Part shown: piece by piece, positions 1-14,766 of the stretch
Layout of the letters: each line of letters begins with the position of its first letter
How positions within the stretch are numbered: position 1 is the stretch's first letter
The notes under the pieces: generated by a model
The model's database searches: none
What the model saw: the letters and a program-made list of their open reading frames with translations, nothing else
What the model was told of the DNA's origin: nothing
Translations under genes and position numbers: made by a program
From: Elusimicrobiales bacterium
GTDB lineage: Bacteria; Elusimicrobiota; Elusimicrobia; Elusimicrobiales; UBA9959
NCBI GenBank assembly: GCA_049972095.1
Contig: JBMFKQ010000002.1
Span: 69,021 to 88,636, forward strand
Length of the DNA: 19,616 bases
Reading direction: 5' to 3'

Positions 1-849
1 GTATCTGGCACAACTGGAAGTGGCGATCTTGTTTTTAGCACACAGCCAAGCTTTACCACGGGGATAACAGTGTCTGGGTGGGGGAATTTTTCTGGTGGCA
101 TAACAGCATCAAGCGGGACATTTACAACTGCAGTTGGAACACCGCGTATGAATCTAACAAGCAATGTTTACATATCATCAACCACATCTGCAAATTATGG
201 CGGTGTTTATGTCTCAACACATATATATCTTGTATCAGGAGCAAGATATTATGGAAATGGAAGTCAAATTACAAACATTGATGCCTCAAAAATAACAACA
301 GGAACACTTCCTCCTTCAAGAGGTGGAACTGGTATTTCTGGTGCAGGTGGGACAGCAAATAGGGTTCTTATTACAACCGATGGATCTTCCTGGACAGCAG
401 GCCAAATAAATCCAGCAACAATGATATCAGCAGGAGCGCTTCCAATAAATGTTATTGCATCATCAATAGCAGTCAATGCGGTTTATACTGGGGCGATATC
501 GGATGGTGCGGTTACGGATGCGAAAGTATCAGACAATATTTCTATCAATAATGGAAATTTATATTCAATATCAGGTTCTGGCAACGTCGGCATCGGGACG
601 ACAAATCCACAATATAAATTGGATGTGTACGGGGATCTTCGCGTTACCGGTATTATACGGGATTTCTGCATACCAGTTGCCTATCCCAACGGAACATGTC
701 CTTCGACCCACCCAAGAATGTCAGGATTTTTCCCTAATGATTCAGGTTATATTGACTTCTATGCAATGGACGCAGCGAGTTCATGGACCAGATACAGGTT
801 TTCTCTATTTTCGGGTGGAACTATAATATGCTGTAAGATATGGTACTAA
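1..849 (+). CDS. C-terminal part of a large repetitive surface/fibre-like protein (5' truncated by the window edge)
   Basis: Frame 1 is open from base 1 (VSGTTGSGDLVFSTQPSF...) to TAA at 847-849, so the GTG at 70 is probably internal. Gly/Ser/Thr-rich beta-repeat character with motifs ASKITTGTLP, AISDGAVTDAKV and GNVGIGTTNPQYKLDVYGD seen in fibre-like/surface proteins; short Cys-containing tip (CPSTHP...ICCK). Confidence 0.65.
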   Translation, partial: VSGTTGSGDLVFSTQPSFTTGITVSGWGNFSGGITASSGTFTTAVGTPRMNLTSNVYISSTTSANYGGVYVSTHIYLVSGARYYGNGSQITNIDASKITTGTLPPSRGGTGISGAGGTANRVLITTDGSSWTAGQINPATMISAGALPINVIASSIAVNAVYTGAISDGAVTDAKVSDNISINNGNLYSISGSGNVGIGTTNPQYKLDVYGDLRVTGIIRDFCIPVAYPNGTCPSTHPRMSGFFPNDSGYIDFYAMDAASSWTRYRFSLFSGGTIICCKIWY

Positions 850-859: not shown

Positions 860-1303
860 TTGAAAGATATTGTTTTAAGATATCCGGTGAGTTATGATAT
901 TGAGGTGATAAGATATGTCTCATATATGATGACATCTGATTTCTGGGTTTTTGTAAGTAAATCCGGAAATTTCTTTCAAATAAGGCTTACTCCAAAGAAA
1001 GATGGTGTATACGATCTAAGAAAAATTAAAAAAAGATTTGAAGATGAGTTAAAATACGAGATATTTAGAAAAAAACTCTTAGATAAAAATGCTGATTTCA
1101 GGTTTCACATAATAAAAAAGGCGATTACCTATACCCCACCCTCTCAAGAGGAACTTCCAGATGCTTTAACACCAGAGGAGCAAAAAGAGCTTGAAAGGCT
1201 TATAAAAGAGGCTGAGGAAGAGATAAAAAAAGAACTTCAAAAGGAGAAGGATGATGATATTAGAAAAACATGGGAAGAAAAATACGGCAAAAAAGTTAGA
1301 TAA
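860..1303 (+). CDS. hxsD: HxsD-like His-Xaa-Ser system accessory protein with acidic C-terminal extension
   Basis: RFEDELKYEIFRKKLLDKNADFRFHIIKKA resembles the HxsD C-terminal helix pattern (F.NEL....LR........IR..I...A). Lies directly upstream of hxsB; tail ends ...IRKTWEEKYGKK. Confidence 0.6.
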   Translation: MKDIVLRYPVSYDIEVIRYVSYMMTSDFWVFVSKSGNFFQIRLTPKKDGVYDLRKIKKRFEDELKYEIFRKKLLDKNADFRFHIIKKAITYTPPSQEELPDALTPEEQKELERLIKEAEEEIKKELQKEKDDDIRKTWEEKYGKKVR

Positions 1304-2720
1304 CACTCTCTTTGTAAGATGGAAAAAGATATCCAAAAACAAAGTTATAATGACAAATGATTTTGGAGGCTATATTATCCTTAAAGAAAAAGACCTCAAT
1401 GATTATATATCTAACAAAATAACTAAAAAACACAGACTTTACAAAGAGCTTTCAGAAAAGGGGTTTATAAAAACATTTATGGATTTTGACTCACTTTTCA
1501 GAAAGTGGAAAGACTTAAACTCATATCTTTTTACAGGCCCTTCACTTCATATAATTGTAATAACTCTTAGGTGCAATCAGAGATGCATTTACTGTCAAAG
1601 TCAAGCAGTTGGAATGAAAGATACAGACACTGATATGAATATTAACACAGCAAAAAAGGCTGTTGATACTGCTTTTTTATCACCTTCGAAAAACCTGATA
1701 ATAGAGTTTCAGGGTGGAGAGCCGCTTGTAAACTGGGATGTAGTTAAGAAAACAATAGAATATGCAAGGGAAAAAGAAAAAAAATCAGATAAGAGACTTT
1801 CACTATCGGTTGTCACAAATTTCTCGCTAATGGATGAAAAAAAGGCAGAGTTTCTTTTGAGAAATGAGATTTCACTCTGCACATCTCTTGATGGACCTAA
1901 GAGACTCCACGAGTCAAACAGGATATATTCAGGCTCAAGCTCTTATGAGCTTGCGGTTAAATGGATAAAATACTTTAACAATAAATATGAAAAACAGCAT
2001 GGACTTTCTTATAGGATATTCAAGCCATCAGCCCTTTTGACTGTTTCAAAAAAATCACTTGACTATCCTAAAGAGATAGTTGATGAATATGTTAAAAATG
2101 GCCTTGAAACCATTTTTATAAGACCACTTTCCCCAATAGGATTTGCCAAAAAACATTGGAATATTATAGGATATACTCCTGATGAGTTTGTAGATTTCTA
2201 CAAAAAAGCTCTTGAATACATAATAAAACTGAATATAAAAGGTAAAATACTTTACGAGAAAACAGCTCAGATGCTTTTAAACAAAATAATAAACTCAAAA
2301 GACCATGGATTTACTGATCTTAGATGTCCATGTGGTGCTGCAACAGGACAGATAGCATACAACTTCAACGGTGATGTCTACACCTGCGATGAGGGAAGGA
2401 TGGTGGGATGGGAAGGGGATGAATCGTTTAAAATAGGAAATCTTTTTAGTGATTCATACTCAAAACTTATAAACTCCCCAATAACAAGGATATGTATGCA
2501 TACATCAAACCTTGAAAATCAACCAAGATGCTCAAGATGTCCTTATATGCCGTGGTGTGGGGTTTGTCCTGTTGTTAACTACGAATCACAGTCTAACTTT
2601 TGGGGTGATAACTTTACATCATCAAGATGTGCTATAATGATGGGTATATTTGATACACTCTTTGAGTTTATGGAAAACAAAAGTTATTCCAAGGTTCTTA
2701 ACGACTGGGTAAAAATCTAA
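1251..2720 (+). CDS. hxsB: His-Xaa-Ser system radical SAM/SPASM maturase HxsB (copy 1)
   Basis: CNQRCIYC, IEFQGGEPL, CTSLDGP, FIRPLSPIGFA, DLRCPCGAATGQIAYNFNGDVYTCDEGRM and SPASM-type CSRCPYMPWCGVCP...RC. About 95 aa N-terminal extension; RBS aaggagaagg before ATG 1251. Confidence 0.85.
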   Translation: MMILEKHGKKNTAKKLDNTLFVRWKKISKNKVIMTNDFGGYIILKEKDLNDYISNKITKKHRLYKELSEKGFIKTFMDFDSLFRKWKDLNSYLFTGPSLHIIVITLRCNQRCIYCQSQAVGMKDTDTDMNINTAKKAVDTAFLSPSKNLIIEFQGGEPLVNWDVVKKTIEYAREKEKKSDKRLSLSVVTNFSLMDEKKAEFLLRNEISLCTSLDGPKRLHESNRIYSGSSSYELAVKWIKYFNNKYEKQHGLSYRIFKPSALLTVSKKSLDYPKEIVDEYVKNGLETIFIRPLSPIGFAKKHWNIIGYTPDEFVDFYKKALEYIIKLNIKGKILYEKTAQMLLNKIINSKDHGFTDLRCPCGAATGQIAYNFNGDVYTCDEGRMVGWEGDESFKIGNLFSDSYSKLINSPITRICMHTSNLENQPRCSRCPYMPWCGVCPVVNYESQSNFWGDNFTSSRCAIMMGIFDTLFEFMENKSYSKVLNDWVKI

Positions 2721-2734
2721 GGTGTGAGGTAAAG

Positions 2735-3013
2735 ATGAAGTATGAAATAGATCTTGACATATACTCGGCTGATGCTATAAAAATAGCAAAAAACATTATA
2801 GACAAAGAAGATCTCATAAAGATAAATATAAAAGATGAAAAGGCTGAGGCAATATTCGACGAAAAAAATATAACCTTATTTAATAATCTTATGAACGAAG
2901 CATTATCACAGCAATGCAGGATAGATACATCAAAGAAAAACTCAAAAGTAGCTGAGCTTTTGACAACTCTTGTTATACTTTCTGCCCTTGGAAAAGGAGG
3001 AGGCAAAAAATGA
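2735..3013 (+). CDS. hxsD: HxsD-like small protein (copy 2)
   Basis: 92 aa. N-terminal IDLDIYSADAIK and C-terminal FNNLMNEALSQQCR match the HxsD pattern; RBS gaggt upstream; follows hxsB. Confidence 0.65.
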   Translation: MKYEIDLDIYSADAIKIAKNIIDKEDLIKINIKDEKAEAIFDEKNITLFNNLMNEALSQQCRIDTSKKNSKVAELLTTLVILSALGKGGGKK

Positions 3014-4071
3014 AAAAATATATAGTGTTTGGTATAATAATCGTTGCAGCAGTTATTATTCTGCTACAGATTAAAAGCAGAAAAACTCCTATAATTCAAC
3101 AACCAGAAACACAAACTGAGGAGCTAAAAATAGGAAAAGAAATTCCAAAGGATTATACCACTCCACCACCTGTTTCTACTCCTCCACCATCCATTGAGCA
3201 AACTGTATCACCAGAGTATATGCAGATGACTGGATGCACAAAAACATTCGAAGACATAATTTCAGGCTGGGGTAAGGAATGGGGACCACCACCAAGGAAG
3301 ATAACATCCCCCATTCAACAACTAACATTATCCCCTCAGCAGACTAACAAAATAGTAGAGCTTCTAAAGGATTACCTTTTATGTGAGGCAATTGCCAATA
3401 AAGACCCATCAAAGTGTGATAGGTTTACACCGACAAAAGAAGAATGTACAAAGGTATATTATGAGTATCAGTTTAATGAGTTTTTTATAGGTGCAAATAA
3501 AAACGAAGCTGATTGTAAAAAATACCTAGAGATGGAGATACGTGATGAAAAGGAAAATCGGATACGTACAAGTGATTCCTGGCGTTTTTCATCTCTAAAT
3601 CTTAGCCCAGATAAAATTTGCTCCGAAATAAAAAATGATATAAGAGGGATATGTGATAGACTTTTCACAAACCCATCAGAAAGAAAAAAATGCTACACTG
3701 TTTTCCCTAAGAATATACTTGATGGGTGCCCAATGCCCAACAAAGAAGAATGCGTTAAAGCATATGAGAATATAAAAACTACAGGAAAATATGATTGCGA
3801 GTTTCTCGAAAAAGGCTCGGAAGAGTTATGTAAAATCAGAAAGATAGGAGGTGTTATATGTAGAGAAAAACTCAACAAACTTCTTTCGACATACTGCTCA
3901 TACCTTGCTGATCTTGAGGAAAAAAGGAAAAGAGAAGAAGAAAAGCTTAAACAAGCACAGGAGGAGGAAGAAAGAAAAAAGTTAGAGGGAGAGATAATAA
4001 AAAAGGCAAAGCAGGCTGCAGAGGAAGAAAAAAGATTTAGGAGGAAAAGAGGGGGTGGTGATGAAGAATAA
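3010..4071 (+). CDS. Membrane-anchored or secreted Cys-rich hypothetical protein with C-terminal charged coiled coil
   Basis: MKK plus hydrophobic stretch (YIVFGIIIVAAVIILL), Pro/Thr linker, 14 Cys, E/K/R-rich helical tail. ATGA overlap with the upstream gene. Confidence 0.75.
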   Translation: MKKYIVFGIIIVAAVIILLQIKSRKTPIIQQPETQTEELKIGKEIPKDYTTPPPVSTPPPSIEQTVSPEYMQMTGCTKTFEDIISGWGKEWGPPPRKITSPIQQLTLSPQQTNKIVELLKDYLLCEAIANKDPSKCDRFTPTKEECTKVYYEYQFNEFFIGANKNEADCKKYLEMEIRDEKENRIRTSDSWRFSSLNLSPDKICSEIKNDIRGICDRLFTNPSERKKCYTVFPKNILDGCPMPNKEECVKAYENIKTTGKYDCEFLEKGSEELCKIRKIGGVICREKLNKLLSTYCSYLADLEEKRKREEEKLKQAQEEEERKKLEGEIIKKAKQAAEEEKRFRRKRGGGDEE

Positions 4072-4396
4072 AAAAGCAAAAGAAAGCATAAAAAAATATC
4101 TAAAAAATTATCTAACAAGTGAAGAAGGAAAAATCCTTGATAGTGATGTTGTAAAAACTGCAATTGCCTTAGGGATTATTGGTGCATCACTTCCACAGGA
4201 AGCTGAGGCAGGTGTCTTTCATACAAATTACTTTACAGGAACACGGCATGTCTCCCATTCATCACATGGTTCTCACTCATCTCATGGAGCACATGGATCA
4301 CATTCATCTCATGGAGCTCATGGAGCACATTCATCTCATGGATCTCATGGATCTCATGGATCTCATGGATCTCATGCACGCGGTGGATGGTGCTGA
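4061..4396 (+). CDS. hxsA: His-Xaa-Ser repeat precursor peptide (HxsA-like), 111 aa
   Basis: ATG 4061 behind ggggtggtg is preferred over GTG 4055. Leader MKNKK...YLTSEEGKI...TAIALGIIGASLPQEAEA, then a core of 15 His-led triplets (11 HxS, 3 HGA, 1 HAR) and terminal GGWC; embedded among HxsB/C/D-like genes. Confidence 0.88.
   Translation: MKNKKAKESIKKYLKNYLTSEEGKILDSDVVKTAIALGIIGASLPQEAEAGVFHTNYFTGTRHVSHSSHGSHSSHGAHGSHSSHGAHGAHSSHGSHGSHGSHGSHARGGWC
4247..4381 (+). repeat. Coding 9-bp tandem repeat array (15 units) encoding the His triplets
   Basis: Units such as catggatct, cattcatct and catggagca. Four perfect catggatct copies at 4337-4372; 27-bp higher-order units starting at 4265, 4292 and 4319. 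Confidence 0.92.
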
Positions 4397-4461
4397 TGAC
4401 TAAAAAATAATAAAGAATTTACATAAATATATTAGACAAAAGTGAGTCATAAAAAGTAGAA

Positions 4462-5481
4462 GTGAAAATACTATCCACAATTGATGCCATAAAAAAGTTT
4501 GGTTGGCCATATACAAACCCAAAATCATGCGAGCTTACACTTCACTACTCCTGCAATGCAAAATGTATCTTTTGCTATACTGAGTATCCCCAAACACAAT
4601 TATCTTCCCTATCCATTGATTTAAAAAAAGCGGCACTTCATATGAAAAAATCCTATGAAAATGGCTCAAGACTATGCCAGATAATAGGAGGAGAGCCAAC
4701 AGTATATCCAGAGCTTGAAAAGATAGTATCAATTGCAAGAAAAATTGGATATCCCATAATTCAGATAGTGACAAATGGTATAAATCTTTCAGACTACAAA
4801 TTTGTCAATAAGCTAAAAAAAGCAGGGTTAAACTCAATAACCTTTTCCATCCACTCTCATAATCCTAAAACCCATGACAGAATAGTAGGTATTAAAGGGG
4901 CATTTTACAAAGTTTTAAAAGCCATAGAAAATGTCATAAAGGAAGAAATACACATAACTGTTGGAACAGCTGTAAACTTGCTAAACTTCAAGGATATACC
5001 TCATCTTGTAAAATACTTTCACAAAAAATATGCCATAGAAACATTTCACATAATAGGGCTCCATATAATAGGAGAGGTAAAAAAAAATAAAGAAAAACTT
5101 ACAGTTCCATACTCTACAACCCTTCCCTACATAAAGCAGGCAGTAGAATATCTTGCCTTGCATAATGCATTCCCACTATCTCCGATTCTTTCCAACTACA
5201 CTCCATGTCTTTTGCCGGGATATGAAGGGCTTATATCTGATTGGAAGATTCCATTCTCAGATGATGACCTTATACTACCTCAAAAAACTTATTACAACCA
5301 AATGTATACAATGATAACTCAAAATTTGAGAATTAAGACAAAAAGATGTGAAAAATGTATATATTCAAAAATATGCGCTGGTTTTGAAAAAAAATACTAT
5401 GAAGAGTTTGGAGACAAAGAATTTAAACCGCTAGATAAAATCCATAGCCCCCCAAAGATATCGTGCTTTTACAAAAGATGA
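4462..5481 (+). CDS. HxsC-like radical SAM protein
   Basis: LHYSCNAKCIFC, IIGGEPT, IVTNG, FSIHSH...HDRI, YTPCLL and C-terminal CEKCIYSKICAG...Y...FG..EFKP tail; GTG start. Confidence 0.82.
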   Translation: MKILSTIDAIKKFGWPYTNPKSCELTLHYSCNAKCIFCYTEYPQTQLSSLSIDLKKAALHMKKSYENGSRLCQIIGGEPTVYPELEKIVSIARKIGYPIIQIVTNGINLSDYKFVNKLKKAGLNSITFSIHSHNPKTHDRIVGIKGAFYKVLKAIENVIKEEIHITVGTAVNLLNFKDIPHLVKYFHKKYAIETFHIIGLHIIGEVKKNKEKLTVPYSTTLPYIKQAVEYLALHNAFPLSPILSNYTPCLLPGYEGLISDWKIPFSDDDLILPQKTYYNQMYTMITQNLRIKTKRCEKCIYSKICAGFEKKYYEEFGDKEFKPLDKIHSPPKISCFYKR

Positions 5482-6653
5482 AGGAAACTGAAAATCTCAA
5501 TACTCTGCCACATGACCATATAATATCAATAGGAAATATATGTAACAGCAACTGTCTTTACTGTGCAGCTAAAAATAAAAATGAGACAAAAAATCAGATT
5601 GATGAAGATACCTCATATAGAATAATAGACTTTATTCTCTCAAAATCACCCCAGTATATATATCTTGAGCTAACTGGTGGTGAGCCATTTCTCATAACAG
5701 AAAAACTTGAAAAAATGCTTAATTATTTTGAAAAAAAAACTAAAGAGAAAAAAATCAAAAAACATATATCAATTGTATCAAACCTAACAAAACTTACTGA
5801 TGATGACATAAAACTCATCCTTAAATACCGAATAACTATATGCACATCTCTTGATGGACCAAAAGAGCTTCACAATCTTCAAAGAGATGGAATTAAAGAT
5901 GCATACTCAAAACTCTCATCATCAATAAAAAAAATTCAATACTATGCTTCAAAAGGTATAATAGAACAACCCAATCTGATAACAACGATAACCAAATTCT
6001 CTCTTTCTTTTTATAGAGAGATAATAAATGAATATCTAAAGCATAACATCACAAGGGTTCAGCTGGGAATGATTGAGCCAATAGGAAAAGCCAATGAAAT
6101 ATGGGATAGGATAGGAATAACATCAGAGGAATACATAGAATTTTATGAAAAAGCATTTGATGAGATAATCAGAATAAACCATGACAGAGAAATACCAATA
6201 TATGAAAAAGGTTTCTTTCTACTCTTAAAGACTATGAAACTAAAAAAATACCATCCTAAAAGAAGCATTCCAATCTTAAACAGACTTTCTTATGATCACA
6301 ATGGAAACATATACCCTGATGATGAGTCAAGAATGCTTTGTGAGGATGGAAAAAAGGATTTCAAATTGGCAGATGTATCTATGTCTGTAAAGAGATTTTT
6401 AAACTCTGAAAATGTAAAAGAGATTCTCAAATACTCAACAACAAACAAATATGATCAAAACTGTAAAATGTGTGCTTATTCTAACTACTGCCATATCCCA
6501 ATATGGCACAGATATCTTTACTCAGATATATCATCTCCCTCAAAAACACCAAAGTGCAAGATATTTAAATTTATCTTTGATCTTATAAACCAGTCTCAAA
6601 AAGACAGATTATTAAGTAAGATAATGAAAAGATGGCTTGAGATTTATGAATAA
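5478..6653 (+). CDS. Divergent HxsB-like radical SAM protein lacking the N-terminal extension
   Basis: ATG 5478 forms an ATGA overlap with the upstream stop. CNSNCLYC, LELTGGEPF, CTSLDGPKELHN, YDHNGNIYPDDESRML, CKMCAYSNYC...KC. Confidence 0.8.
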   Translation: MKETENLNTLPHDHIISIGNICNSNCLYCAAKNKNETKNQIDEDTSYRIIDFILSKSPQYIYLELTGGEPFLITEKLEKMLNYFEKKTKEKKIKKHISIVSNLTKLTDDDIKLILKYRITICTSLDGPKELHNLQRDGIKDAYSKLSSSIKKIQYYASKGIIEQPNLITTITKFSLSFYREIINEYLKHNITRVQLGMIEPIGKANEIWDRIGITSEEYIEFYEKAFDEIIRINHDREIPIYEKGFFLLLKTMKLKKYHPKRSIPILNRLSYDHNGNIYPDDESRMLCEDGKKDFKLADVSMSVKRFLNSENVKEILKYSTTNKYDQNCKMCAYSNYCHIPIWHRYLYSDISSPSKTPKCKIFKFIFDLINQSQKDRLLSKIMKRWLEIYE

Positions 6654-7554
6654 AAAACTTGATATAAAAATAACATTCAACTGCAACAATAGATGCGATT
6701 TCTGTGCACAAGGCTCAAAAAGGGAATATATAAAACCAAAGTCTTTTGAGGAGATAAAAAAAGCACTTTATGATGGCATAAAATCAGATGCAGGAACAGT
6801 AGTTCTTACGGGGGGAGAGCCAACCCTACATCCCGAGATAGTAAGAATTGTGAAAGAGGCAAAAAAAGCAGGTTATACAAGGATACAGCTCCAGACAAAT
6901 GGAAGAACACTTTGTAATGAAAGATTTCTAAAAGAATTGGTTTCAGCTGGTGTAAATGAGATAAGTCCAGCAATCCATGGGCCAAATTCACAAATTCATG
7001 ATATGCTAACACACTCACCTCAAAGCTTCAATCAAACCATTACTGGAATAAAAAATGCCAGAAAACTTGGAATATATGTTTTAACAAATACAGTAGTAAA
7101 TTCAGTTAATTATAAATATCTTCCGGAAATAGCAAAACTTCTTGTCTATTTAAATGTAAATCAGTTTCAATTCGCCTTTATACACATAGTAGGAAGGGGA
7201 TGGGAAAACAGAAACTGGATTGTTCCAAAAAAAACAGATGTTATGCCATACATATATAAAGGGCTTGAGATAGGAAGATCTGCAAAAACTCCATGCTACA
7301 CTGAGGCAATACCATACTGCATGATGCAGGGATATGAAGAGCATGTGGCTGAAAGAATAATACCGGATGGTCCTGTTGTTGACGCTGATGTATTTGTTGA
7401 AAACTTTGGAGAATACAGAAGAATAGAAGCAAAAGTCAAAGGCCCTCAATGTAAGGAGTGTTTTTATTACAATATCTGTGAAGGCCCGTGGAAGGAATAT
7501 CCTGAGATATACGGCTGGAGTGAGTTCAAACCTGTAATTAAAAAAAGAAAATGA
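6646..7554 (+). CDS. HxsC-like radical SAM protein
   Basis: ATG 6646 (MNKKLDIK) preferred over TTG 6637. CNNRCDFC, LTGGEPT, LQTNGR, IHG...HD.LT, IPYC, CKECFYYNICEGPWKEY...YGWSEFKP. Confidence 0.85.
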   Translation: MNKKLDIKITFNCNNRCDFCAQGSKREYIKPKSFEEIKKALYDGIKSDAGTVVLTGGEPTLHPEIVRIVKEAKKAGYTRIQLQTNGRTLCNERFLKELVSAGVNEISPAIHGPNSQIHDMLTHSPQSFNQTITGIKNARKLGIYVLTNTVVNSVNYKYLPEIAKLLVYLNVNQFQFAFIHIVGRGWENRNWIVPKKTDVMPYIYKGLEIGRSAKTPCYTEAIPYCMMQGYEEHVAERIIPDGPVVDADVFVENFGEYRRIEAKVKGPQCKECFYYNICEGPWKEYPEIYGWSEFKPVIKKRK

Positions 7555-8951
7555 TAATTGATATACTTTTTGAAAAGATAGATGAGAATAATTATTTTAT
7601 ATCATCCCACAGCGGGGCAAATACATTTCTTAAAAAAAATGAATTTATATCAGTAGTTGAAAATAGAATGCCTTCATATCTTTTTAGAAAACTCTATACT
7701 CTTGGAATGATAGTTGGCAAAGAAAATGAAAAAAGATACATATCAAACTACCTTAAGCTCAATAGATACCTATTTTCTCCACCAACACTTCATATAGTCG
7801 TGCTTACAACAAAATGCAACCATGCATGCGTCTACTGCAGAGCAAAACCAGAAGGGACAAAAATCATTGATATGAATTTCAAAACAGCACAAAAAACTAT
7901 TGACTTTATATTCTCTGTTCCATCAGATCATATAACTGTTGAGTTTCAAGGAGGAGAATCTTTCATAAACTGGAAGGTTTTTGAGGAATCTGTATTATAT
8001 ATAAATGAGAAAAACAGAAAAAAAGCTAAGGATGTCCTTATAACCATTGTTACAAATCTCTCACTTATGAACAGCAAAAAACTTGAGTTTATAATGAAAA
8101 ATAATATATCGCTATGCACATCACTTGATGGTCCTTGTGAGATACACAATACAAACAGAATCTATTTTGCTCAAGATTCGTACAAAAATACTATTCTTTG
8201 GCTTTCAAAAATTATTAAGCTTACATCAACTATAAAAAAAGGACAACCCGATTCTCTTCCCTCAGCTCTAATGACTACCACAAGGATCTCACTTAAGAGA
8301 TGGAAGGAGATAATAGATGAATATAGAAATCTTTCTCTTGGTGGCATATTCATAAGACCACTCTCTCCAATAGGATATGCATCATCAAGATGGAACGAAA
8401 TAGGATATACCCCTGATGAGTTCCTTGAGTTTTATGAAAAATCTCTTGACTATATAATAGAAATAAATAGAGAAGAAAAATTTATTGAAAGAAATGCAGC
8501 CATAAAACTTAAAAAAATACTTTTTAACGAAGATCCAAACTATCTTGATCTAAGAAGTCCATGCGGATCAGTCATAGGTCAGATGGCTTATTATCCAGAT
8601 GGAGGTATATACACATGTGATGAAGGGAGGATGATAGAAAACAAAGGAGAAAACATCTTTAAAATTGGAGATGTTTTCTCTTCATCATATAAAAGTATAA
8701 TTAAATCGCTAAAATCAAAGGCTGTTATTTATAGTTCTAACATAGATATCTATCCTCAATGCTCAAGGTGTGCTTTTAAACCATATTGTGGGGTGTGCCC
8801 AGCTTTTAATTATTCTACAAAAGGCTCCCTTATCAATATAGATTTCTCAAATTATTGGTGTGTAATTGAAAAGGGTATTTTCAAGATACTTATAAAAAAG
8901 CTGATGAAAAGGGAGATAAAAGATATATTTATGAGGTGGTTTGATGCCTGA
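7551..8951 (+). CDS. hxsB: His-Xaa-Ser system radical SAM/SPASM maturase HxsB (copy 2)
   Basis: PTLHIVVLTTKCNHACVYC, VEFQGGE, FIRPLSPIGYA, YLDLRSPCGSVIGQMAYYPDGGIYTCDEGRM, CSRCAFKPYCGVCP. Clear full-length paralog of 1251-2720. Confidence 0.85.
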   Translation: MIIDILFEKIDENNYFISSHSGANTFLKKNEFISVVENRMPSYLFRKLYTLGMIVGKENEKRYISNYLKLNRYLFSPPTLHIVVLTTKCNHACVYCRAKPEGTKIIDMNFKTAQKTIDFIFSVPSDHITVEFQGGESFINWKVFEESVLYINEKNRKKAKDVLITIVTNLSLMNSKKLEFIMKNNISLCTSLDGPCEIHNTNRIYFAQDSYKNTILWLSKIIKLTSTIKKGQPDSLPSALMTTTRISLKRWKEIIDEYRNLSLGGIFIRPLSPIGYASSRWNEIGYTPDEFLEFYEKSLDYIIEINREEKFIERNAAIKLKKILFNEDPNYLDLRSPCGSVIGQMAYYPDGGIYTCDEGRMIENKGENIFKIGDVFSSSYKSIIKSLKSKAVIYSSNIDIYPQCSRCAFKPYCGVCPAFNYSTKGSLINIDFSNYWCVIEKGIFKILIKKLMKREIKDIFMRWFDA

Positions 8952-9837
8952 CATATCACTGTGGAATAAATGTAATAACAGATGCATAATGTGCACAAAT
9001 CCAAGAGATTATTCTAATTCAGATCCATATGGTAATTATGATTTAAAAACCCAGATAAAAAAAATAAATCTTTACCTTCAAGGTAAAGATGATGTTTTTT
9101 ACCCAAACCACAAAAGAAAAGACTATATAAACATAACAGGTGGAGAGCCAACCCTTCATCCAAATTTTTTTCATCTTATAAGATACTTTTCTGATAAATT
9201 TAAAAAAACACCAATAACACTTTTAACAAATGGTAGAAGGTTTTCGGATGAAACATTTGCTAAAAAATTTTCAGCAATAACAAATGAAAGATTTACTGCT
9301 GCCATAAGTATTCATTCATACAGATCTGATGTCTTTGACAAAATAACAGGAGTAAAAAAAAGTTATCATCAAACAATATCAGGACTTATGAATCTTATGA
9401 AATACTTTTGTGGAAGTATAGAGATAAGAACTGTTGTTCATAAACTCAATATAGAAGATTTAAAACAAACCATTCTTTTTGTAAAGGATCTAATGATAGC
9501 TTATAGAAATTGGTATCATGTTATTATACACTATGAGATAGAAGGAGTTGGTGAGGAAAATAGAAAAATAATAAAACTCAAACTTTCAGACTCTGCAAAG
9601 GTAATAGAAGAAATTGATGAAGATATATTAAAAGCATCAAACATAAGACTTTATCATTTTCCACTTTGTATACTTAATCCGAGACTCAGAAGATATGCAT
9701 GGAAAACACTTCCAGATAATGAGATTATTTTTACAAAAAAATGTGAAAAATGCATTTTAAAAAAGAAATGTCTTGGACTTATGAAAAGATATTATGAACT
9801 TTATGGAGACGATGAGCTTAAAACAGTTTGTAGATAA
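8944..9837 (+). CDS. hxsC: His-Xaa-Ser system radical SAM maturase HxsC (closest to the canonical form)
   Basis: CNNRCIMCTNP, ITGGEPTL, LLTNGRRF, EIRTVVHKLN, EIEG...N, LYHFPLCIL...AW, CEKCILKKKCLG. Immediately follows hxsB as in canonical hxsBC pairs. Confidence 0.8.
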   Translation: MPDISLWNKCNNRCIMCTNPRDYSNSDPYGNYDLKTQIKKINLYLQGKDDVFYPNHKRKDYINITGGEPTLHPNFFHLIRYFSDKFKKTPITLLTNGRRFSDETFAKKFSAITNERFTAAISIHSYRSDVFDKITGVKKSYHQTISGLMNLMKYFCGSIEIRTVVHKLNIEDLKQTILFVKDLMIAYRNWYHVIIHYEIEGVGEENRKIIKLKLSDSAKVIEEIDEDILKASNIRLYHFPLCILNPRLRRYAWKTLPDNEIIFTKKCEKCILKKKCLGLMKRYYELYGDDELKTVCR

Positions 9838-10999
9838 CCTGAGTATTTTTCTATTTTATGCATCAGCATTCTTTTACATAACATGGGGAATTTTTATTAT
9901 AAAGGAAGATTTTGAAACAGGAAAGATAAAAAATTCACATATCATCTTAGCATTTAGATTTACACTTTTTATGCTTTTAATACAACTAACACTAACTCTT
10001 CTTGGAAGCTATGGATATATCAGCAATTACTTAACAAATCAGTTTTACATATACTATTTTTATAATCTCATACAGTCTGCAATCTTTTCATACATACTTT
10101 GGTATGGGGAGGTATGGCCTGCTGGGGATTCAAAGTTTTATACTGCAAATATGGTAATAATCCCTCTTATAAATCCTCAACTACGAGGATTTCCACAATC
10201 TTTATGGCTATTATGCCTTATAAACATATTTATAATAGCTGCTTTTTTTTCTATCTATTCATATGTAAAGGAAAACAGCACAATGCTTAGAAAAGGAGAT
10301 AATGATGCATTCAAAGAAATAAAAGAATATTACAAAAATGAGTTAAAGGAATCTTTAAAACTTAAACCTCAAAACCTTTTTATGATATTCTCACTTTTCT
10401 CAGTCTTCTCATATAAACAGACACTCAACCTCCTTCTTCAAAACTACATCTTTAACATCTTTCACAGAACAGACATATTCTTTTTTCTTCTTTACTTTCT
10501 ATGGCCTAAGATATCAACAATGTTTAGATCAAAGATCTGGAAGTACATAATGTTTGTTTTTTATGTCTGGCTTTTAATATATGCATTACTGTCTCCACAA
10601 TCATATGAGATAATAAAAAATATAATAATAACTGCTATAAAAAACACTTTTAAGTTTGCAACAATCTTTACTGTTGGAAAAATAATATTTGAAAAGATAA
10701 TAGAAGCCCACAATATATTCTATGCCTCAAAGGATGAGATAAAGCCTGGTATGATCCTTTCATCATATGAGCTTGGAATAATCAAGAAAAATGAGGTATT
10801 TAATGGAATCTTTGATGATCTTTTTAAGGATGGGCTTAGTGAAGAGCAGGTTGAGGTTCTTAAGAAATGGATGGAAAATCATCCTAATAAAAATGTTAAG
10901 CTAAGATTTGTAAGAGCAAAACCATTTGCATTCAATATATTTATAGGGTGTCTGATGCAGATAATAATTAACAAAAATCTGCTTAAGCTAATATTATGA
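9794..10999 (+). CDS. Polytopic membrane protein, putative A24 (prepilin/preflagellin peptidase-like) GxGD aspartic protease
   Basis: Many hydrophobic segments. First-Asp motif EDFETGKIKN (D39), second WPAGDSKF (D112), and C-terminal EIKPGMIL...GLSEEQV...PFAFNIFIG resembling FlaK-type A24 C-termini. Start codon uncertain (9794, 9803 or 9812). Confidence 0.7.
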   Translation: MNFMETMSLKQFVDNLSIFLFYASAFFYITWGIFIIKEDFETGKIKNSHIILAFRFTLFMLLIQLTLTLLGSYGYISNYLTNQFYIYYFYNLIQSAIFSYILWYGEVWPAGDSKFYTANMVIIPLINPQLRGFPQSLWLLCLINIFIIAAFFSIYSYVKENSTMLRKGDNDAFKEIKEYYKNELKESLKLKPQNLFMIFSLFSVFSYKQTLNLLLQNYIFNIFHRTDIFFFLLYFLWPKISTMFRSKIWKYIMFVFYVWLLIYALLSPQSYEIIKNIIITAIKNTFKFATIFTVGKIIFEKIIEAHNIFYASKDEIKPGMILSSYELGIIKKNEVFNGIFDDLFKDGLSEEQVEVLKKWMENHPNKNVKLRFVRAKPFAFNIFIGCLMQIIINKNLLKLIL

Positions 11000-11919
11000 G
11001 GAAATTAAAAAAACTTGTAATATTCCTTGGCTATTCATGTAGCAACAACTGTGTCTTTTGCATAAACAGTCAAAGAAGAAACAAAATAAAAGACAAATCA
11101 ACACATGAGGTTTTAAAGGAGATCTATCTTGCTGCGAAAAAAGAAAAGGTTGATATTCTTGAACTGATAGGTGGTGAGGCAACAATAAGAAAGGATTTTT
11201 TTGAGATAATATCTACGGCAAAAAAACTCAAGATTCCAGATATAGTTATTGCAACTAATGGTAGAGCATTTGCAGACATAGACTTTTGTAAAAAAGCCTT
11301 AGAAGCCGGACTTTCTACCATAATATTTTCAATACACGGACATACACCACAGCTTCACGACAAACTTACAAGATCACCTAAGGCATTTTCTCAGATGATG
11401 AAGGGTATAGAAAACCTTAAAAAAATAGGTTTTTCAAGGATAAACGCTAACACAACAGTGGTCAAAACAAACTATAGATACCTTCCAAAAATAGCATTTC
11501 TTCATATAAAACTTGGAATAAGAGATGTTGAATATATATTTGTTGATCCCCAAGAAGGCGGTGCTAATGAAAATTTTGATAAGCTTGTGCCAAGAATATC
11601 AGATGCCTCAATTTATATGAAAAAGGCACTTGAAATAGGGATAAAAAACGGCTTTAATCACTGGAAGGTAAGGTATGTTCCACTATGCTACTTTTCAGAT
11701 TATCTTGACTACATTAGCGAGATAAATGAAGCAAAGCTTTTTAAATCAAAACACTGGGCACCTGATTTTAAGGATGATGATGTAGTTAAATCAAGGAAAA
11801 AATACGGGAGAACAAAGACAGAAAGATGTATAGGATGTAAGCTATATAATCTCTGTGAGGGAATATGGAAGGAGTATATAAAAAAATATGGAGACAGCGA
11901 ACTAAATCCAATAAAATAA
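10996..11919 (+). CDS. HxsC-like radical SAM protein (paralog of 6646-7554)
   Basis: CSNNCVFC, LIGGEAT, ATNGR, SIHGH...HDKLT, NTTVV..NYRYLP, VPLC, CIGCKLYNLCEGIWKEY...YGDSELNP. Confidence 0.85.
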   Translation: MRKLKKLVIFLGYSCSNNCVFCINSQRRNKIKDKSTHEVLKEIYLAAKKEKVDILELIGGEATIRKDFFEIISTAKKLKIPDIVIATNGRAFADIDFCKKALEAGLSTIIFSIHGHTPQLHDKLTRSPKAFSQMMKGIENLKKIGFSRINANTTVVKTNYRYLPKIAFLHIKLGIRDVEYIFVDPQEGGANENFDKLVPRISDASIYMKKALEIGIKNGFNHWKVRYVPLCYFSDYLDYISEINEAKLFKSKHWAPDFKDDDVVKSRKKYGRTKTERCIGCKLYNLCEGIWKEYIKKYGDSELNPIK

Positions 11920-12950
11920 ACAAGCTTTTTGTATATGTAACAAGCTCTTGTAATCTTAGATGCTCATACTGCTTTTATTCATCTTACAAAAAAAAGAAAA
12001 GCATATCTTTTGAAGCATTTAAAAGGGCATTTAAAAAGTTTTTAGACATATCAGAAAATCCAGAGGTTATTTTTATAGGTGGAGAGCCACTAATTGAAAA
12101 AGAAAAGGTAGTAAAAATGATGAGATATGCTGTGAAAAGTGCAAGAATAAGCATATTTACAAATGCAACGCTTATAGATAGAACCGTAGCAGATTTTATA
12201 AAACAAAACAATATAAATCTAATAGTAAGCATAGATGGAGATTTGAAAACAAATGATAGAAACAGAAGGTTTATAGGTTTTAAATCCTCGGTTTATAAAA
12301 GGGTTTTATCTGTGCTTGAAAAATATAACTTAAAGGACTACACATCAGTAAATATGGTTATAACCCCAAAAACTATAAATAGCCTTTCAAACAATATAAA
12401 ACATCTCTATGAAATAGGATTTAAATCCATAGGTATTTCCTTTGACTATTCATCTAACTGGTGTCAAAAATCAATCTTAATACTTAAAAAAGAGCTCAAA
12501 AAGGTTTTTATTGATTATCTTAAAATGATAAAAGAGCATAATGCATATAGATTTGCAAATATGTATGAAGTTTTTTATAAAATTAAGAATAAAAAAATAC
12601 CACCCTGCTCAAACCTAATACTCTTTCCCGACGGTAATTTTTATTTATGTGATAAAATAATATCTATGAATGAGAATGAGAGAAATCTTTTTAAAATAAA
12701 GAAGAATATCATCAGGGAAAGAGAAATCTTTTTTGATTTTATGAATAAAAATGAGATATCCTCATCACAAGGCTTCTGCCAGATTGGAATATATTTATAT
12801 CTGAAATATATAAAAAAATTGAATGATGATATAGTAAAACTGAGATTATTAGAAAAGTCTAAGCTTCAAAGCGAAATAGAAGAAATTTTAACAAATTATT
12901 TTACAAAACTACTTAAATTTAAATATTTTACAGAACTTCATAGAGTATGA
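11865..12950 (+). CDS. Radical SAM protein, third subtype (anaerobic sulfatase-maturase-like core with reduced auxiliary Cys set)
   Basis: YVTSSCNLRCSYC, FIGGEPL, VSIDG...NDRNR.F, PC...FPDGNFYLCD, GFCQIGIY. Similar to the two minus-strand enzymes. Confidence 0.82.
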   Translation: MEGVYKKIWRQRTKSNKINKLFVYVTSSCNLRCSYCFYSSYKKKKSISFEAFKRAFKKFLDISENPEVIFIGGEPLIEKEKVVKMMRYAVKSARISIFTNATLIDRTVADFIKQNNINLIVSIDGDLKTNDRNRRFIGFKSSVYKRVLSVLEKYNLKDYTSVNMVITPKTINSLSNNIKHLYEIGFKSIGISFDYSSNWCQKSILILKKELKKVFIDYLKMIKEHNAYRFANMYEVFYKIKNKKIPPCSNLILFPDGNFYLCDKIISMNENERNLFKIKKNIIREREIFFDFMNKNEISSSQGFCQIGIYLYLKYIKKLNDDIVKLRLLEKSKLQSEIEEILTNYFTKLLKFKYFTELHRV

Positions 12951-14119
12951 AAAACAACAATCAATGCTATGAGATACTCCTCAACTACTCCTGCAACGCT
13001 TCATGTATATTCTGCTCTCAAGCAGACTATGATAGAACTAAAAAAGCATCCTTTGATGATATAGTAAAGCAGATATATAAAGCAAAAAAAGAGGGATATA
13101 TTAAACTTGGCTTAAGTGGTGGTGAGCCAACAATTAGAGATGACCTCCCTCAGATAATAAAAACAGCAAGGAAAATAGGGTTTAGCTTCATAAGGATACA
13201 AACAAATGGAATACTTCTTGAAAATTACGAATTTGCTAAAAAACTTGTTGAAGCAGGACTAACATTCTGTAAATTTTCATTTACATCACATATACCAAAA
13301 ATACACAATATACTTGTGAAAAGAGAATATGCATGGGAAAAAGCAATGAAAGGTCTTGAAAATATGAAAAAACTTAAAGTAAGAATAGGAAACAACATAC
13401 TTGTAAATAAATGCAATATATTGAATATTGAGAAAACAGTTAAATTCTTCTTAGATAAGGGGGTGAGCAATTTTGTAATAATATATCCAATCTATACAGG
13501 CAATATGTATATAAACAGAGATATTGGGGTCTCGCTTGGAAAATGTAAAAAACATTTTTTAAACCTTATAGAAATGATGAAGAAAAACGGACTTTCTAAT
13601 GAAATACTTTTTCTAAATGTGCCACCATGTTTTCTTGATGAATATTATCAGCAAGCAATAGGGCTCTCCCCATTTAACACGCTTGTGACCTCACCTGATG
13701 GCAGAAGAATAGATCTAGATGAAAATGCAAATGAAGAAAAAATAAAGGGGAAGATATGTGAAAAATGCATGCTTTATAAAATCTGCAAAGGAGTGGATAG
13801 AAAATACATTGAGATATTTGGATGGGAGGATTTTATGCCACTTAAAAGCGAAAATGATAAAAAAAAGAAGCAAAAATTTTCAAAAGAGTACCTTACTGAT
13901 AACGAAAAATGTCTTATAGAAATACTTAAACGGAAAAACAATATAGATACTCAAACAGTTCTTAAGATAGCAAAGAAAATACCACTATGTCAGGATTGCA
14001 CAGATGGAAACAATGTGATTAATGCCGCTGCAAAGCTTGTTAATAAAAAAATAATACAAATGGAGTTTATAAAAGGAAAATACTACTTTAAACTATTAAA
14101 AAACCAGGAAAGCATTTGA
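12947..14119 (+). CDS. HxsC-like radical SAM protein with a C-terminal CxxC-containing winged-helix-like extension
   Basis: LNYSCNASCIFC (cf. 4462), LSGGEPT, IQTNG, NVPPCFL, CEKCMLYKICKG...FGWEDFMP, then about 75 extra residues LTDNEKCLIEILK...CQDC...KLVNKKII...GKYYFKL. Confidence 0.82.
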   Translation: MKNNNQCYEILLNYSCNASCIFCSQADYDRTKKASFDDIVKQIYKAKKEGYIKLGLSGGEPTIRDDLPQIIKTARKIGFSFIRIQTNGILLENYEFAKKLVEAGLTFCKFSFTSHIPKIHNILVKREYAWEKAMKGLENMKKLKVRIGNNILVNKCNILNIEKTVKFFLDKGVSNFVIIYPIYTGNMYINRDIGVSLGKCKKHFLNLIEMMKKNGLSNEILFLNVPPCFLDEYYQQAIGLSPFNTLVTSPDGRRIDLDENANEEKIKGKICEKCMLYKICKGVDRKYIEIFGWEDFMPLKSENDKKKKQKFSKEYLTDNEKCLIEILKRKNNIDTQTVLKIAKKIPLCQDCTDGNNVINAAAKLVNKKIIQMEFIKGKYYFKLLKNQESI

Positions 14120-14766
14120 ATTTTACATTACTATAAAAGAAATATTTAGTCTCTCTAATTGATTAACATTTAATTAACCTACCACAAAAGTAAGGTTAAA
14201 GATATGAAAATAGAGAAAATTGAGAGAAATTATTAAATAATATCAAAGAAAACAGAAAAAAGGAAAGTTGTTATCATATCATATTCAGGTGGAAAAAGAT
14301 TTTCATATTGCAATAATCAAACTAATTGAAAAAGAATTTTTTTCTGTTTTTCTAAGCCTATTCTTGGAGAAAGAAATTTAAGATACCTTAACTGTCCTGA
14401 CTTGAGTGAGCTAATTAAAATAGTAAAATAACTAAAAAACTTTTAGAAGCAAACAAAGAAAAACTTGAAGAACCATTATCTAATTTTTTTATAGACTGTA
14501 GTTGTTCAATTATCATTGTTTAAAGATAATACCCAAATTTTCATAGATCAAATTAAAAAAATTCTTCATCATTATTATTATTCCAAAACCTACTAAATCC
14601 AAGTTTATCTTAAATTAATTAGTAATTAAGCAAATCTTGAGACATAAAAATAAGATGTGGAACAATTTTAAATTTTGGATATTGGATTCTGGAACATTAA
14701 AAGATAATACTTATAAAATCAAACATAATTTAATTTTAGTGAAAAGATGATGGGTGAGAAGTGAAA

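Follow-up and report, generated by a model that had tools for sequence, protein, structure and literature searches.

A histidine-triplet peptide of the HxsA4 type and its probable radical SAM maturation locus in an Elusimicrobiales bacterium

In a 19,616-nucleotide stretch of the genome of an Elusimicrobiales bacterium (assembly GCA_049972095.1, contig JBMFKQ010000002.1, positions 69,021 to 88,636 of the forward strand; hereafter the window), the open reading frame (ORF) at 4061-4396 on the forward strand encodes a 111-residue protein with 15 contiguous His-x-x triplets, and the genes around it include twelve for radical S-adenosylmethionine (SAM) enzymes. We consider it highly likely that this protein is a substrate of radical SAM enzymes of the Hxs type. 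The fuller reading, in which it is an HxsA4-type pre-pro-peptide matured by an expanded type 4 Hxs system along the course proposed below, is in our judgement probable. Judged from its gene content, the locus as a whole appears to be an expanded relative of the four-gene HXS family, of a type that is named in databases and has not been described in print.

The precursor and its family

Translation of 4061-4396 gives a protein that begins MKNKK, continues through AEAGVFHTNYFTGTR and ends with the triplet array, GGWC and the stop codon. In terms of segments, the order is MKNKKAKESIKKYLKNYLTSEEGKILDSDVVKTAIALGIIGASLPQEAEA, GVFHTNYFTGTR, 15 His-x-x triplets, GGWC and stop, which by translation map as follows.

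4061-4210 (residues 1-50), forward strand: basic leader with a YLTSEEGK motif, hydrophobic stretch and AEA
4211-4246 (residues 51-62), forward strand: pre-array segment, GVFHTNYFTGTR
4247-4381 (residues 63-107), forward strand: 15 His-x-x triplets
4382-4393 (residues 108-111), forward strand: GGWC tail, followed by the stop codon at 4394-4396

A sequence-only reading of this DNA had described 15 contiguous His-x-x triplets with VFHTNYF before them and a GGWC terminus, and by translation that description is exact. The triplets are in register and read HVS HSS HGS HSS HGA HGS HSS HGA HGA HSS HGS HGS HGS HGS HAR; 11 of the 15 are thus H-x-S, three are HGA and one is HAR. The single Cys of the precursor is at its C-terminus. 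The ATG at 4061 agrees with the starts of homologues (a GTG at 4055 is the alternative in the ORF listing), and the gene start overlaps the end of the preceding ORF, 3010-4071, by 11 nt; the Cys-rich protein encoded by that ORF is translationally coupled to the precursor. Two more ORFs that overlap the gene, 4179-4403 (+) and 3693-4163 (-), were put down to the repeat and the purine-rich stretch.

The His-x-x array lies far beyond chance. In a six-frame scan of the whole genome (1,438,724 bases), it is the only run of at least seven in-register H-x-x triplets, and the sole other run of six is an antisense frame of the array itself. In nucleotide terms the array is a tandem repeat that has degenerated (period 27 with 4.1 copies and 88% matches; period 9 with 12.9 copies and 76% matches), and it therefore appears to be old and diverged rather than the product of fresh slippage or an assembly artefact. 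The array also occurs, with every His kept, in public hot-spring metagenomes, on contigs of two runs that belong to two studies; one of these may be the source sample. Relative to the window, the contig of one of these runs (X1) carries an extra in-frame TGC after 4390, so that it ends in GGWCC, together with the changes R62Q (4245), S95A (4343) and S101A (4361), the last two of which fall at position 3 of triplets; neither the number of repeats nor any His is altered. A collagen reading of the precursor was rejected, as the PF01391 match of 16.8 bits falls below the cut-off of 27.2 and Gly does not occupy every third position.

With respect to family identity, the best match is to the NCBIfam model NF038313 (HxsA4), at 52.4 bits and an E-value of 7.2e-14; the precursor also weakly matches HxsA3, and no match to the canonical HxsA model is listed in NCBIfam at E ≤ 0.01. 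Taken with the adjoining HxsB, HxsD-like and HxsC-like genes, the HxsA4 match supports the earlier proposal that this protein is a precursor and substrate for radical SAM/SPASM enzymes. Homologues number 364 at E ≤ 0.01 among 3450 candidates. The few that carry names are HxsA4 or hypothetical proteins from metagenome-assembled genomes of Elusimicrobiales, Elusimicrobiota and Omnitrophota, with two coming from DPANN archaea. When 37 homologues are aligned, only E21 does not vary at all among the residues noted; conservation is at least 90% at L18, S20, E22, G23, L37 and H54, H54 being the His of HTN within the HTNYF segment.

Three features recur in homologues: the leader motif FLxSEEGK (F or Y at the first position), the HTN histidine and an aromatic residue at the C-terminus. 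Among 120 listed homologues, 98 have a SEEGK-like motif and 77 have H-x-N no more than 40 residues upstream of the array, and the repeat run ranges from 4 to 30 triplets (median 10). As to the tails of the same 120 proteins, GGWC is found within the last eight residues of 31, a terminal W in 54 more and a terminal Y or F in 15; an aromatic residue lies within the last four residues of a further seven, and 13 fit no class. The sequence-only reading had singled out HTN and GGWC as motifs whose conservation in homologous precursors should be checked, and both recur, HTN through its at least 90% conserved His and GGWC with the proviso that it is one of several aromatic endings.

The hydropathy peak of the precursor spans residues 31-44, with AEA thereafter, and small-x-small endings after the hydrophobic stretch recur in the 37-homologue alignment. 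A phmmer search with the leader alone (residues 1-60, against 1.84 billion representatives) gave 16 matches at E ≤ 0.001, the query being too short to size the family. Two long proteins, P0127 (1194 residues) and P0139 (1875 residues), match precursor residues ~8-52 in seven and six separate stretches, respectively, which suggests that a leader-like module may also exist as an internal repeat in long proteins.

The radical SAM cluster and its membrane proteins

The window contains 18 larger ORFs, of which 17 are counted to the cluster. PF04055 (Radical_SAM) is found in 12 of the 18, each with Cx3Cx2C, and nine of these 12 also carry a C-terminal CX2CX5C. By class, they comprise three HxsB-like SPASM enzymes, five HxsC/HxsC4-like enzymes, three PapB-like enzymes and one HemN/ChuW-like enzyme. 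The window thereby holds 12 of the 33 radical SAM matches of the whole genome, within a cluster that takes up ~18.5 kb of 1.44 Mb. In one-letter shorthand for the genes listed below, the order is D-B-d-X-A-C-B-C-B-C-M-C-P-C on the forward strand and P-P-H on the reverse strand. The forward-strand genes (860-14119) overlap or lie at most 65 nt apart, and the three further radical SAM genes on the reverse strand are convergent on this operon. The contig ends 213 nt past the last gene of the window, and the cluster may therefore be larger.

860-1303, forward strand: HxsD-like protein 1, 147 residues, with a charged C-terminal tail (TIGR03976 HxsD, LLNDYxLRE family, 34.4 bits, E 2.2e-8, cut-off 50; same position in relatives)
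1251-2720, forward strand: HxsB radical SAM/SPASM maturase copy 1, 489 residues (TIGR03978 509.1 bits, cut-off 370)
2735-3013, forward strand: HxsD-like protein 2, 92 residues (hhalign against the alignment of HxsD-like protein 1, probability 96.2%, E 2.7e-9)
3010-4071, forward strand: membrane-anchored Cys-rich helical protein with a long C-terminal coiled coil, 353 residues (adjoins HxsA4 in relatives)
4061-4396, forward strand: HxsA4-type His-Xaa-Ser repeat precursor, 111 residues (NF038313, as above)
4462-5481, forward strand: HxsC-like radical SAM protein, 339 residues (TIGR03977 107.9 bits, cut-off 267.9; NF038332 HxsC4 91.6 bits, cut-off 500)
5463-6653, forward strand: HxsB-like radical SAM/SPASM protein without the N-terminal ~70 model residues, 396 residues (TIGR03978 247.8 bits over model positions 74-466, cut-off 370)
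6637-7554, forward strand: HxsC4-like radical SAM protein, 305 residues (NF038332 146 bits, cut-off 500; orthologues 52-70% identical)
7551-8951, forward strand: HxsB radical SAM/SPASM maturase copy 2, 466 residues (TIGR03978 439.1 bits, cut-off 370; 40% identical to copy 1)
8941-9837, forward strand: HxsC-like radical SAM protein and best HxsC match of the window, 298 residues (TIGR03977 168.4 bits, E 1.6e-49, cut-off 267.9)
9794-10999, forward strand: polytopic membrane protein, probably a divergent A24 aspartyl protease, 401 residues (ESM Atlas and orthologue motifs)
10996-11919, forward strand: HxsC4-like radical SAM protein, 307 residues (NF038332 147.6 bits over model positions 13-335 of 335; orthologues 55-58% identical)
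11865-12950, forward strand: PapB-like SPASM/twitch radical SAM protein P1, 361 residues (best NCBIfam match NF047865 PapB, 139.9 bits, cut-off 340)
12947-14119, forward strand: HxsC4-like radical SAM protein with a C-terminal extension, 390 residues, last gene of the forward operon (NF038332 102.3 bits, TIGR03977 88.1 bits; orthologues 40-45% identical)
14991-16076, reverse strand: PapB-like radical SAM protein P2, 361 residues (NF047865 146.6 bits, cut-off 340; 34% identical to P3)
16063-17145, reverse strand: PapB-like radical SAM protein P3, 360 residues (NF047865 116.8 bits, cut-off 340)
17142-19403, reverse strand: HemN/ChuW-like (class C type) radical SAM protein, 753 residues (TIGR04107 ChuW/HutW 176.8 bits, cut-off 400; HemW 155.6 bits, cut-off 205.4)

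HxsB copy 1 has its Cx3Cx2C at residue 108 and a C-terminal CX2CX5CX2C, and its orthologues are 43-64% identical; the HxsC-like protein at 4462-5481 has both Cx3Cx2C and the C-terminal CX2CX5C, with orthologues 51-56% identical. HxsC or HxsC4 is the best family for five genes, all below cut-off, and HxsC4 is the best for three of them (102-148 bits against 500). In the family of HxsD-like protein 2, TIGR03976 is matched by all ten members (best E 2.1e-14) and NF038315 (HxsD_rel) by seven of the ten, the window copy itself reaching only 15.6 bits. The second-best families of P1-P3 in NCBIfam are CcpM or SCIFF-type thioether maturases. The HemN/ChuW-like protein carries a C-terminal extension of ~350 residues without a family match, in which Cys 711, 714 and 720 form a CX2CX5C motif, and a homologue of it (33% identical) lies inside the same-strand Hxs cluster of one relative (locus L017).

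The Cys-rich protein at 3010-4071 has a membrane anchor at its N-terminus, then a linker rich in Pro, a helical Cys domain and a long coiled coil. Eight of its Cys residues are invariant and two more are at least 90% conserved in an alignment of 11 sequences. It has no Pfam or NCBIfam family. Its AlphaFold2 model has a mean predicted local distance difference test score (pLDDT) of 77.3, and a search with the whole model (Foldseek against the PDB; VIA wide) gave no fold match at E ≤ 0.001, only a generic coiled coil over residues 280-353 with Z ≤ 5.9. The ESM Atlas returned only an Elusimicrobiota cluster at 0.82, with template-modelling (TM) scores of at most 0.29.

The protein at 9794-10999 is probably a divergent A24 prepilin-type peptidase dedicated to the system, as suggested by sequence and fold comparisons. 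Specifically, the ESM Atlas gave feature scores of 0.95 and 0.94 and TM scores of 0.67-0.72 to clusters partly annotated as Peptidase_A24. Four orthologues share the invariant motifs D39-x4-K-I-x-N and W-P-A-G-D112-x-K-F, of which D39 and G111-D112 were judged against what we take to be the A24 consensus motifs. PF01478 is matched by two of the four orthologues (best E 1.3e-4), and a profile of the protein gave chance-level matches only (E 1.5) against PDB sequences. Homologues occur in 20 of 24 genomes of the same family (f1) and in none of the 16 genomes of families f2 and f3 of the order, often on the contig that carries HxsA4. As the genome has a canonical A24 gene at a separate site, the A24-like gene of the cluster is an extra copy.

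Several whole-window scans gave little further. PADLOC (2023 library) returned only generic similarity of the radical SAM core to viperins and no Hxs-named model, and promoter and terminator scans gave the same counts as shuffled sequence. A predicted complex of the two HxsD-like proteins with precursor residues 1-62 scored 0.00, which is evidence in neither direction. Genes resembling group VI nitrogenase components do not appear to be needed by the system, since in this genome, which is 96.5% complete, PF00148 has no match and PF00142 a sub-threshold one only. The gap between the convergent operons (14120-14990; 870 nt, 25% G+C) contains no ORF longer than 56 residues, and Rfam and tRNA scans of the window, this gap included, gave no match. 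The G+C content of the window, 31.3%, is the lowest among 146 genome windows of 19.6 kb (mean 34.1%, standard deviation 0.9), with 25-28% in the reverse-strand genes at 15-18 kb; either a compositional bias of radical SAM genes or a later addition of P2/P3 would account for it.

Conservation in relatives and the tail-linked enzymes

NF038313 matches 23 of the 24 other genomes of the window's family, the lone miss being 60% complete, and none of the 16 genomes in two other families of the order. The match is above cut-off in 18 of the 24 (19 of 41 in the search, with the row of the window's own genome included). In an even sample of the phylum, NF038313 is found in 21 of 201 genomes, distributed as 10/10 in f1, 6/7 in f8, 3/4 in f6, 0/59 in f2 and 1/63 in f13, and within f1 the system spans 13 genera. 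Three Elusimicrobiota families thus carry the cluster almost universally, and in most of the other families searched it was not found.

Among the 16 relatives' loci first fetched, a core order of HxsD, HxsB, HxsD-like protein, Cys-rich protein and HxsA4, followed by 3-10 radical SAM genes, recurs, and in two relatives' loci the window's own order is repeated almost gene for gene. Between relatives, orthologous enzymes share 40-70% identity, against 20-40% for paralogues inside the window; each enzyme copy is therefore ancient and has been kept individually.

The 17 kb upstream of the window (L026:1-17000) encode LptA, LptB, LptC, KdsD-like, KdsA-like and KdsB-like proteins, a heptosyltransferase, LpxK and CTP synthase, a block for lipopolysaccharide (LPS), 3-deoxy-D-manno-octulosonic acid (Kdo) and Lpt functions that is consistent with a diderm envelope. 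A link between the locus and these LPS genes was considered and rejected, since the Lpt, Kds and LpxK genes are not kept as neighbours in the 16 relatives' loci. Closer in, a single ORF runs from L026:17517-20000 into window positions 1-849 (+); it comprises 828 + 282 residues (at least ~1,110), has no Pfam family and has a Gly/Thr/Ser-rich end. It comes after a small protein with a type IX secretion system (T9SS) C-terminal sorting domain, and the large ORF across this join probably encodes a surface protein.

The sequence-only reading had also supposed that distinct motif types in the precursor explain the need for many enzyme subtypes, an idea that gains ground at the tail, where the type of ending (GGWC or GSY) co-varies with the PapB-like subtype. 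A PapB-like (P-like) SPASM radical SAM gene is present in all 13 loci with a GGWC tail, window included, and in none of ten loci with a GSY tail, which have radical SAM clusters of their own. The P-like set of the GGWC loci includes eight orthologues of ~355-375 residues, four of which start 10-37 nt downstream of the precursor, and at E ≤ 1e-20 the relatives of P1-P3 are confined to GGWC loci. Four loci (L025, L027, L028 and L029) were left out of the comparison, three of them without a precursor ORF called in the BLAST step; L028 is a 2.8-kb stub in which the sole ORF called has the ending PAAIAT. Also set aside were seven loci that end differently (GQW, GAW, GSW, SGT); in four of these seven, P-like matches were only weak, at 43-54 bits.

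Both tail types occur inside one genus. In genome G010, moreover, contig C20 carries two HxsA4 genes ~55 kb apart, at 114843-115109 (L012) and 170175-170444 (L013), one ending RGGWC with a P-like radical SAM gene 10 nt downstream and the other ending GSY beside its own copy of the Cys-rich partner. In another relative (L023), the P-like radical SAM genes at 6033-8159, 3934-6027 and 1898-3937 (-) encode proteins of ~700 residues, twice the usual length, presumably fusions with another domain. Taken together, the co-occurrences suggest a connection between the Cys-bearing GGWC tail and the PapB-like enzymes; as the genomes are related to one another and contig ends truncate several loci, we treat this new association as a lead and not as a test.

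Comparison with known systems, proposed course and alternatives

The studied relative of this locus is the E. coli hxsD-B-C-A system, which, in the available portions of the report by Li et al. (Nat Commun 2026, PMC13128918), confers broad phage resistance by blocking DNA entry. E. coli HxsA is described there as a 214-residue protein with five repeats, a signal peptide and an essential peptidoglycan-binding domain, which acts in the periplasm and stays there; its N-terminal processing requires HxsB, HxsC and HxsD all together. One SHRSS unit carries a +8 Da change (+C/-4H), peptides over nearly all of residues 48-214 were identified, and the same portions report no other modification (PMC13128918). 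In vitro reconstitution of the chemistry failed there, and the +8 Da change is given as chemically unsolved. Canonical HXS systems are placed by the same source at 99.7% in Pseudomonadota, with 99.8% having four genes and 99.6% the order D-B-C-A, and they occur in 27% of Klebsiella genomes (PMC13128918). As far as the available text of a 2022 paper goes, HxsB and HxsC are mentioned there only as predicted maturases, and the TIGR03976-03978 Hxs models are attributed to Haft and Basu (PMC9062424).

The locus described here shares with canonical HXS a tandem His-x-Ser repeat protein with an N-terminal export-type signal (putative in our case), as well as an HxsB radical SAM/SPASM enzyme (two copies above cut-off in the window) and HxsC-like and HxsD-like genes in one operon. 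It differs in having 12 radical SAM genes rather than two and two HxsD-like genes, in the order D-B-d-X-A-C-B-C-B-C... rather than D-B-C-A, and in a precursor of 111 residues with 15 repeats and no peptidoglycan-binding domain, as against 214 residues with five repeats and such a domain. The HTNYF motif, the GGWC or W end, the A24-like protein, the Cys-rich anchored partner and the PapB-like and HemN-like enzymes are all additional to the canonical set. The taxa are likewise different (Elusimicrobiota and Omnitrophota versus Pseudomonadota), and so is the distribution, near-fixed in families here as against 27% of Klebsiella genomes for canonical HXS. The NCBIfam type 4 models (NF038313 HxsA4 and NF038332 HxsC4) are the best families for the precursor and for three radical SAM proteins, but the window copies lie under both cut-offs (52.4 against 55 bits; at most 148 against 500). 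The names HxsA4 and HxsC4 were found in no paper of the searched literature, and therefore no function or chemistry is attached to the type 4 models.

Gene content and conservation are observed; from them we infer the following course. The N-terminal ~25 basic residues with F/Y-L-x-S-E-E-G-K would serve as a recognition leader for the maturases, docked by HxsB through its N-terminal extension with the aid of the two HxsD-like proteins. The twelve radical SAM enzymes would then modify the core in the cytoplasm, their targets being the His-x-Ser/Ala units, the H-T-N-Y-F motif and the W-C end, and the likely chemistry would be C-C or C-heteroatom cross-links together with one-carbon additions, with the PapB-like set probably handling the single C-terminal Cys. 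Export of the modified peptide, a step that we favour somewhat less firmly than the reading as a whole, would be effected by the hydrophobic stretch and A-E-A carrying it across the inner membrane, and the leader may be removed by the A24-like membrane protease of the cluster, by signal peptidase I or by both. The product would be a modified poly-His peptide of ~60 residues in the periplasm or envelope, whose 15 imidazoles could make it a pH-switchable polycation and which may act with the co-translated, membrane-anchored Cys-rich protein at 3010-4071. By homology with E. coli HXS, the likeliest single role for such a product would be an envelope barrier against incoming phage DNA, an assignment that we make only tentatively and at less than even odds.

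A number of observations weigh against this course or its parts. With respect to family assignment, the precursor falls 2.6 bits short of the curated HxsA4 cut-off of 55, and the HxsC-like and HxsD-like proteins also lie below theirs (at best 168 against 268 and 34 against 50 bits). Pfam finds no peptidoglycan-binding or other domain in the 111 residues, only the sub-threshold collagen-repeat match, and that domain is essential in E. coli HxsA. Similarly, the window copy of the A24-like protein has no match to PF01478 at E ≤ 10, its AlphaFold2 model, built from a four-row alignment, is poor (pLDDT 57.8), and the residues after the conserved Gly23 of the precursor are polar (K-I-L-D-S-D), unlike those of a prepilin. 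The tail-enzyme association is confounded by relatedness and by contig ends, as noted above, and a search of public runs listed no RNA run with the locus, only the two DNA holders among the hot-spring metagenomes. An anti-phage role, in particular, sits poorly with near-fixation of the system in f1 (23/24), f8 (6/7) and f6 (3/4) and the lack of any match in f2 (0/59), a family-wide distribution that looks like vertical inheritance and not like a patchy defence gene. The locus is also adjoined by housekeeping LPS, Kdo and Lpt genes and not by a defence island; that neighbourhood, however, is not conserved in relatives.

Family-wide fixation is therefore the reason for keeping as a serious rival a lineage-fixed housekeeping role, in which the modified poly-His peptide would serve the periplasm or outer layer as a structural, metal-binding or proton-buffering component rather than as a defence factor. 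We rate this role as rather unlikely. It would fit near-universality in three Elusimicrobiota families, with 13 genera of f1 represented, the investment by a 1.44-Mb genome of ~18.5 kb and 12 of its 33 radical SAM genes, the adjoining LPS, Kdo and Lpt genes and the occurrence of relatives in Omnitrophota and a few DPANN archaea. Histidine is, in addition, a classic metal ligand, and the array offers 15 of them. Nonetheless, Pfam and NCBIfam scans of the cluster find neither a metal transporter gene nor one for a metal chaperone, relatives do not keep the LPS neighbourhood, and a repeat number of 4-30 among the listed homologues would be more usual for a surface or defence factor in rapid evolution; the homologous canonical HXS, moreover, has a demonstrated anti-phage role (PMC13128918, in the portions available). 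A secreted natural product of the class of peptides that are made by the ribosome and modified after translation (RiPPs), such as an antibiotic, signal or metallophore, with an ordinary RiPP leader and the A24-like protein as leader protease, would account for the leader-core architecture with its many tailoring radical SAM enzymes, for the dedicated membrane protease and for the proximity of the P-type enzymes to the ranthipeptide maturase PapB. We consider this improbable: Pfam and NCBIfam find no ABC exporter, immunity or regulator gene in the window (which lies on a contig ending 213 nt past the last gene), fixation in families with vertical-looking inheritance is unusual for antibiotic clusters, and E. 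coli HxsA stays in the periplasm (PMC13128918, same portions). A pilin-like fate, in which Gly23 of SEEG-K is position -1 of a class III signal cut by the A24-like protease and the peptide is anchored or assembled via its hydrophobic segment, appears quite improbable. The cluster does resemble type IV prepilin/A24 systems in its polytopic A24-like protein with two conserved Asp motifs and in a charged leader, a conserved Gly and a hydrophobic segment. Gly23 is at least 90% conserved, the hydrophobic stretch begins within eight residues after it, the A24-like protein co-occurs with the system (20/24 in f1 against 0/16 in f2 and f3, on the HxsA4 contig in many genomes), and a canonical A24 gene is already present elsewhere in the genome. 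Yet, relative to what we take to be the prepilin consensus, Glu is missing at +5 and the whole of +1 to +8 is polar or charged; the hydrophobic stretch, at ~12-16 residues, is short, after it comes an AxA site of the kind usual for signal peptidase I, Pfam and NCBIfam find no pilus assembly ATPase or platform gene in the window and no pilus machinery in the cluster, and the A24 assignment is itself weak.

In terms of chemistry, the sequence-only reading had each His-x-x triplet as a three-residue cyclophane, joined from a His imidazole carbon to the C-beta of residue 3, so as to give a rigid, polycyclic, triceptide-like polymer with separate enzymes for HxS, HGA, HTN/YF and WC. Cyclophane chemistry on His triplets is plausible by analogy, and repeated aromatic-x-x motifs (15 His-x-x plus H54-T-N) in a ribosomal precursor beside SPASM-type radical SAM enzymes are a feature shared with triceptides; the conserved H-T-N and the HGA and HGS units fit aromatic-x-x, HxsB and the P-type enzymes are SPASM/twitch proteins as cyclophane synthases are, and in the run X1 variant two triplets have Ala in place of Ser as their third residue, both residues having a C-beta, with all His kept. 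Links of this kind are real elsewhere, with HtkB joining His-C2 to Lys-C-beta on HTK, HaaB acting on HAA and YhhB on HNR, each at -2 Da (PMC11499958, in the part available). We nevertheless find the full proposal unlikely. None of the 12 enzymes reaches an NCBIfam cut-off for a known family of three-residue cyclophane-forming enzymes: the best scores lie at 45-70 bits against cut-offs of 310-450 (GrrM/OscB at most 63.2 against 310, YhhB at most 69.9 against 445, FxsB at most 53.2 against 370, XyeB 44.6 against 450 and AmcB 59.9 against 425; no model for HaaB or HtkB was apparent in the NCBIfam output). The five HxsC-like enzymes and the HemN-like enzyme are not of a kind known to make triceptides, the enzyme classes here are many more, and the precursor has an export-type signal. 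The sole measured Hxs modification, in E. coli, is +8 Da at one unit and not a -2 Da series (PMC13128918, in the same portions). Overall, the earlier interpretation is thus partly supported, as regards a radical SAM substrate with conserved motifs, whereas the Hxs system and the export-signal-like N-terminus had gone unrecognised and no enzyme passes a cyclophane-family cut-off. For the tail, P1-P3 resemble PapB ranthipeptide and SCIFF maturases, in that NF047865 is their best family (117-147 bits) and they co-vary with a Cys-bearing tail, but their scores are far below the cut-off of 340 and the precursor has one Cys and not a Cys-rich core. PapB makes thioether links.

The studied four-gene E. 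coli HXS has a radical chemistry that is itself unsolved, and the type 4 form that we favour for this locus would be a richer test bed for it: the precursor is short, with 15 target units flanked by conserved motifs, and the 12 enzymes are separable, fall into four classes and form distinct orthologue groups that are each conserved. The association of the GGWC tail with the PapB-like enzymes offers a concrete first enzyme-to-site assignment to examine. A bolder and improbable version would make the His array the ribosomal backbone of a new envelope material, in which a dozen conserved, anciently diverged radical SAM enzymes would turn ~60 residues into a cross-linked, C-alkylated poly-imidazole chain with a thioether-linked Trp-Cys cap, exported as a fixed, lineage-defining component in entire Elusimicrobiota families and not as a defence accessory; if true, it could serve as a polycation gated by pH or as a conduit for metals or protons, and would be the most heavily radical SAM-tailored peptide known and a new class of structural polymer. 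In itself the locus is more modest, a further member of a class already modelled at NCBI and of interest to radical SAM and RiPP enzymologists. Its near-fixation in small-genome families nonetheless poses the question of whether HXS is a defence module, or a core envelope trait that was later reduced and mobilised by Proteobacteria.

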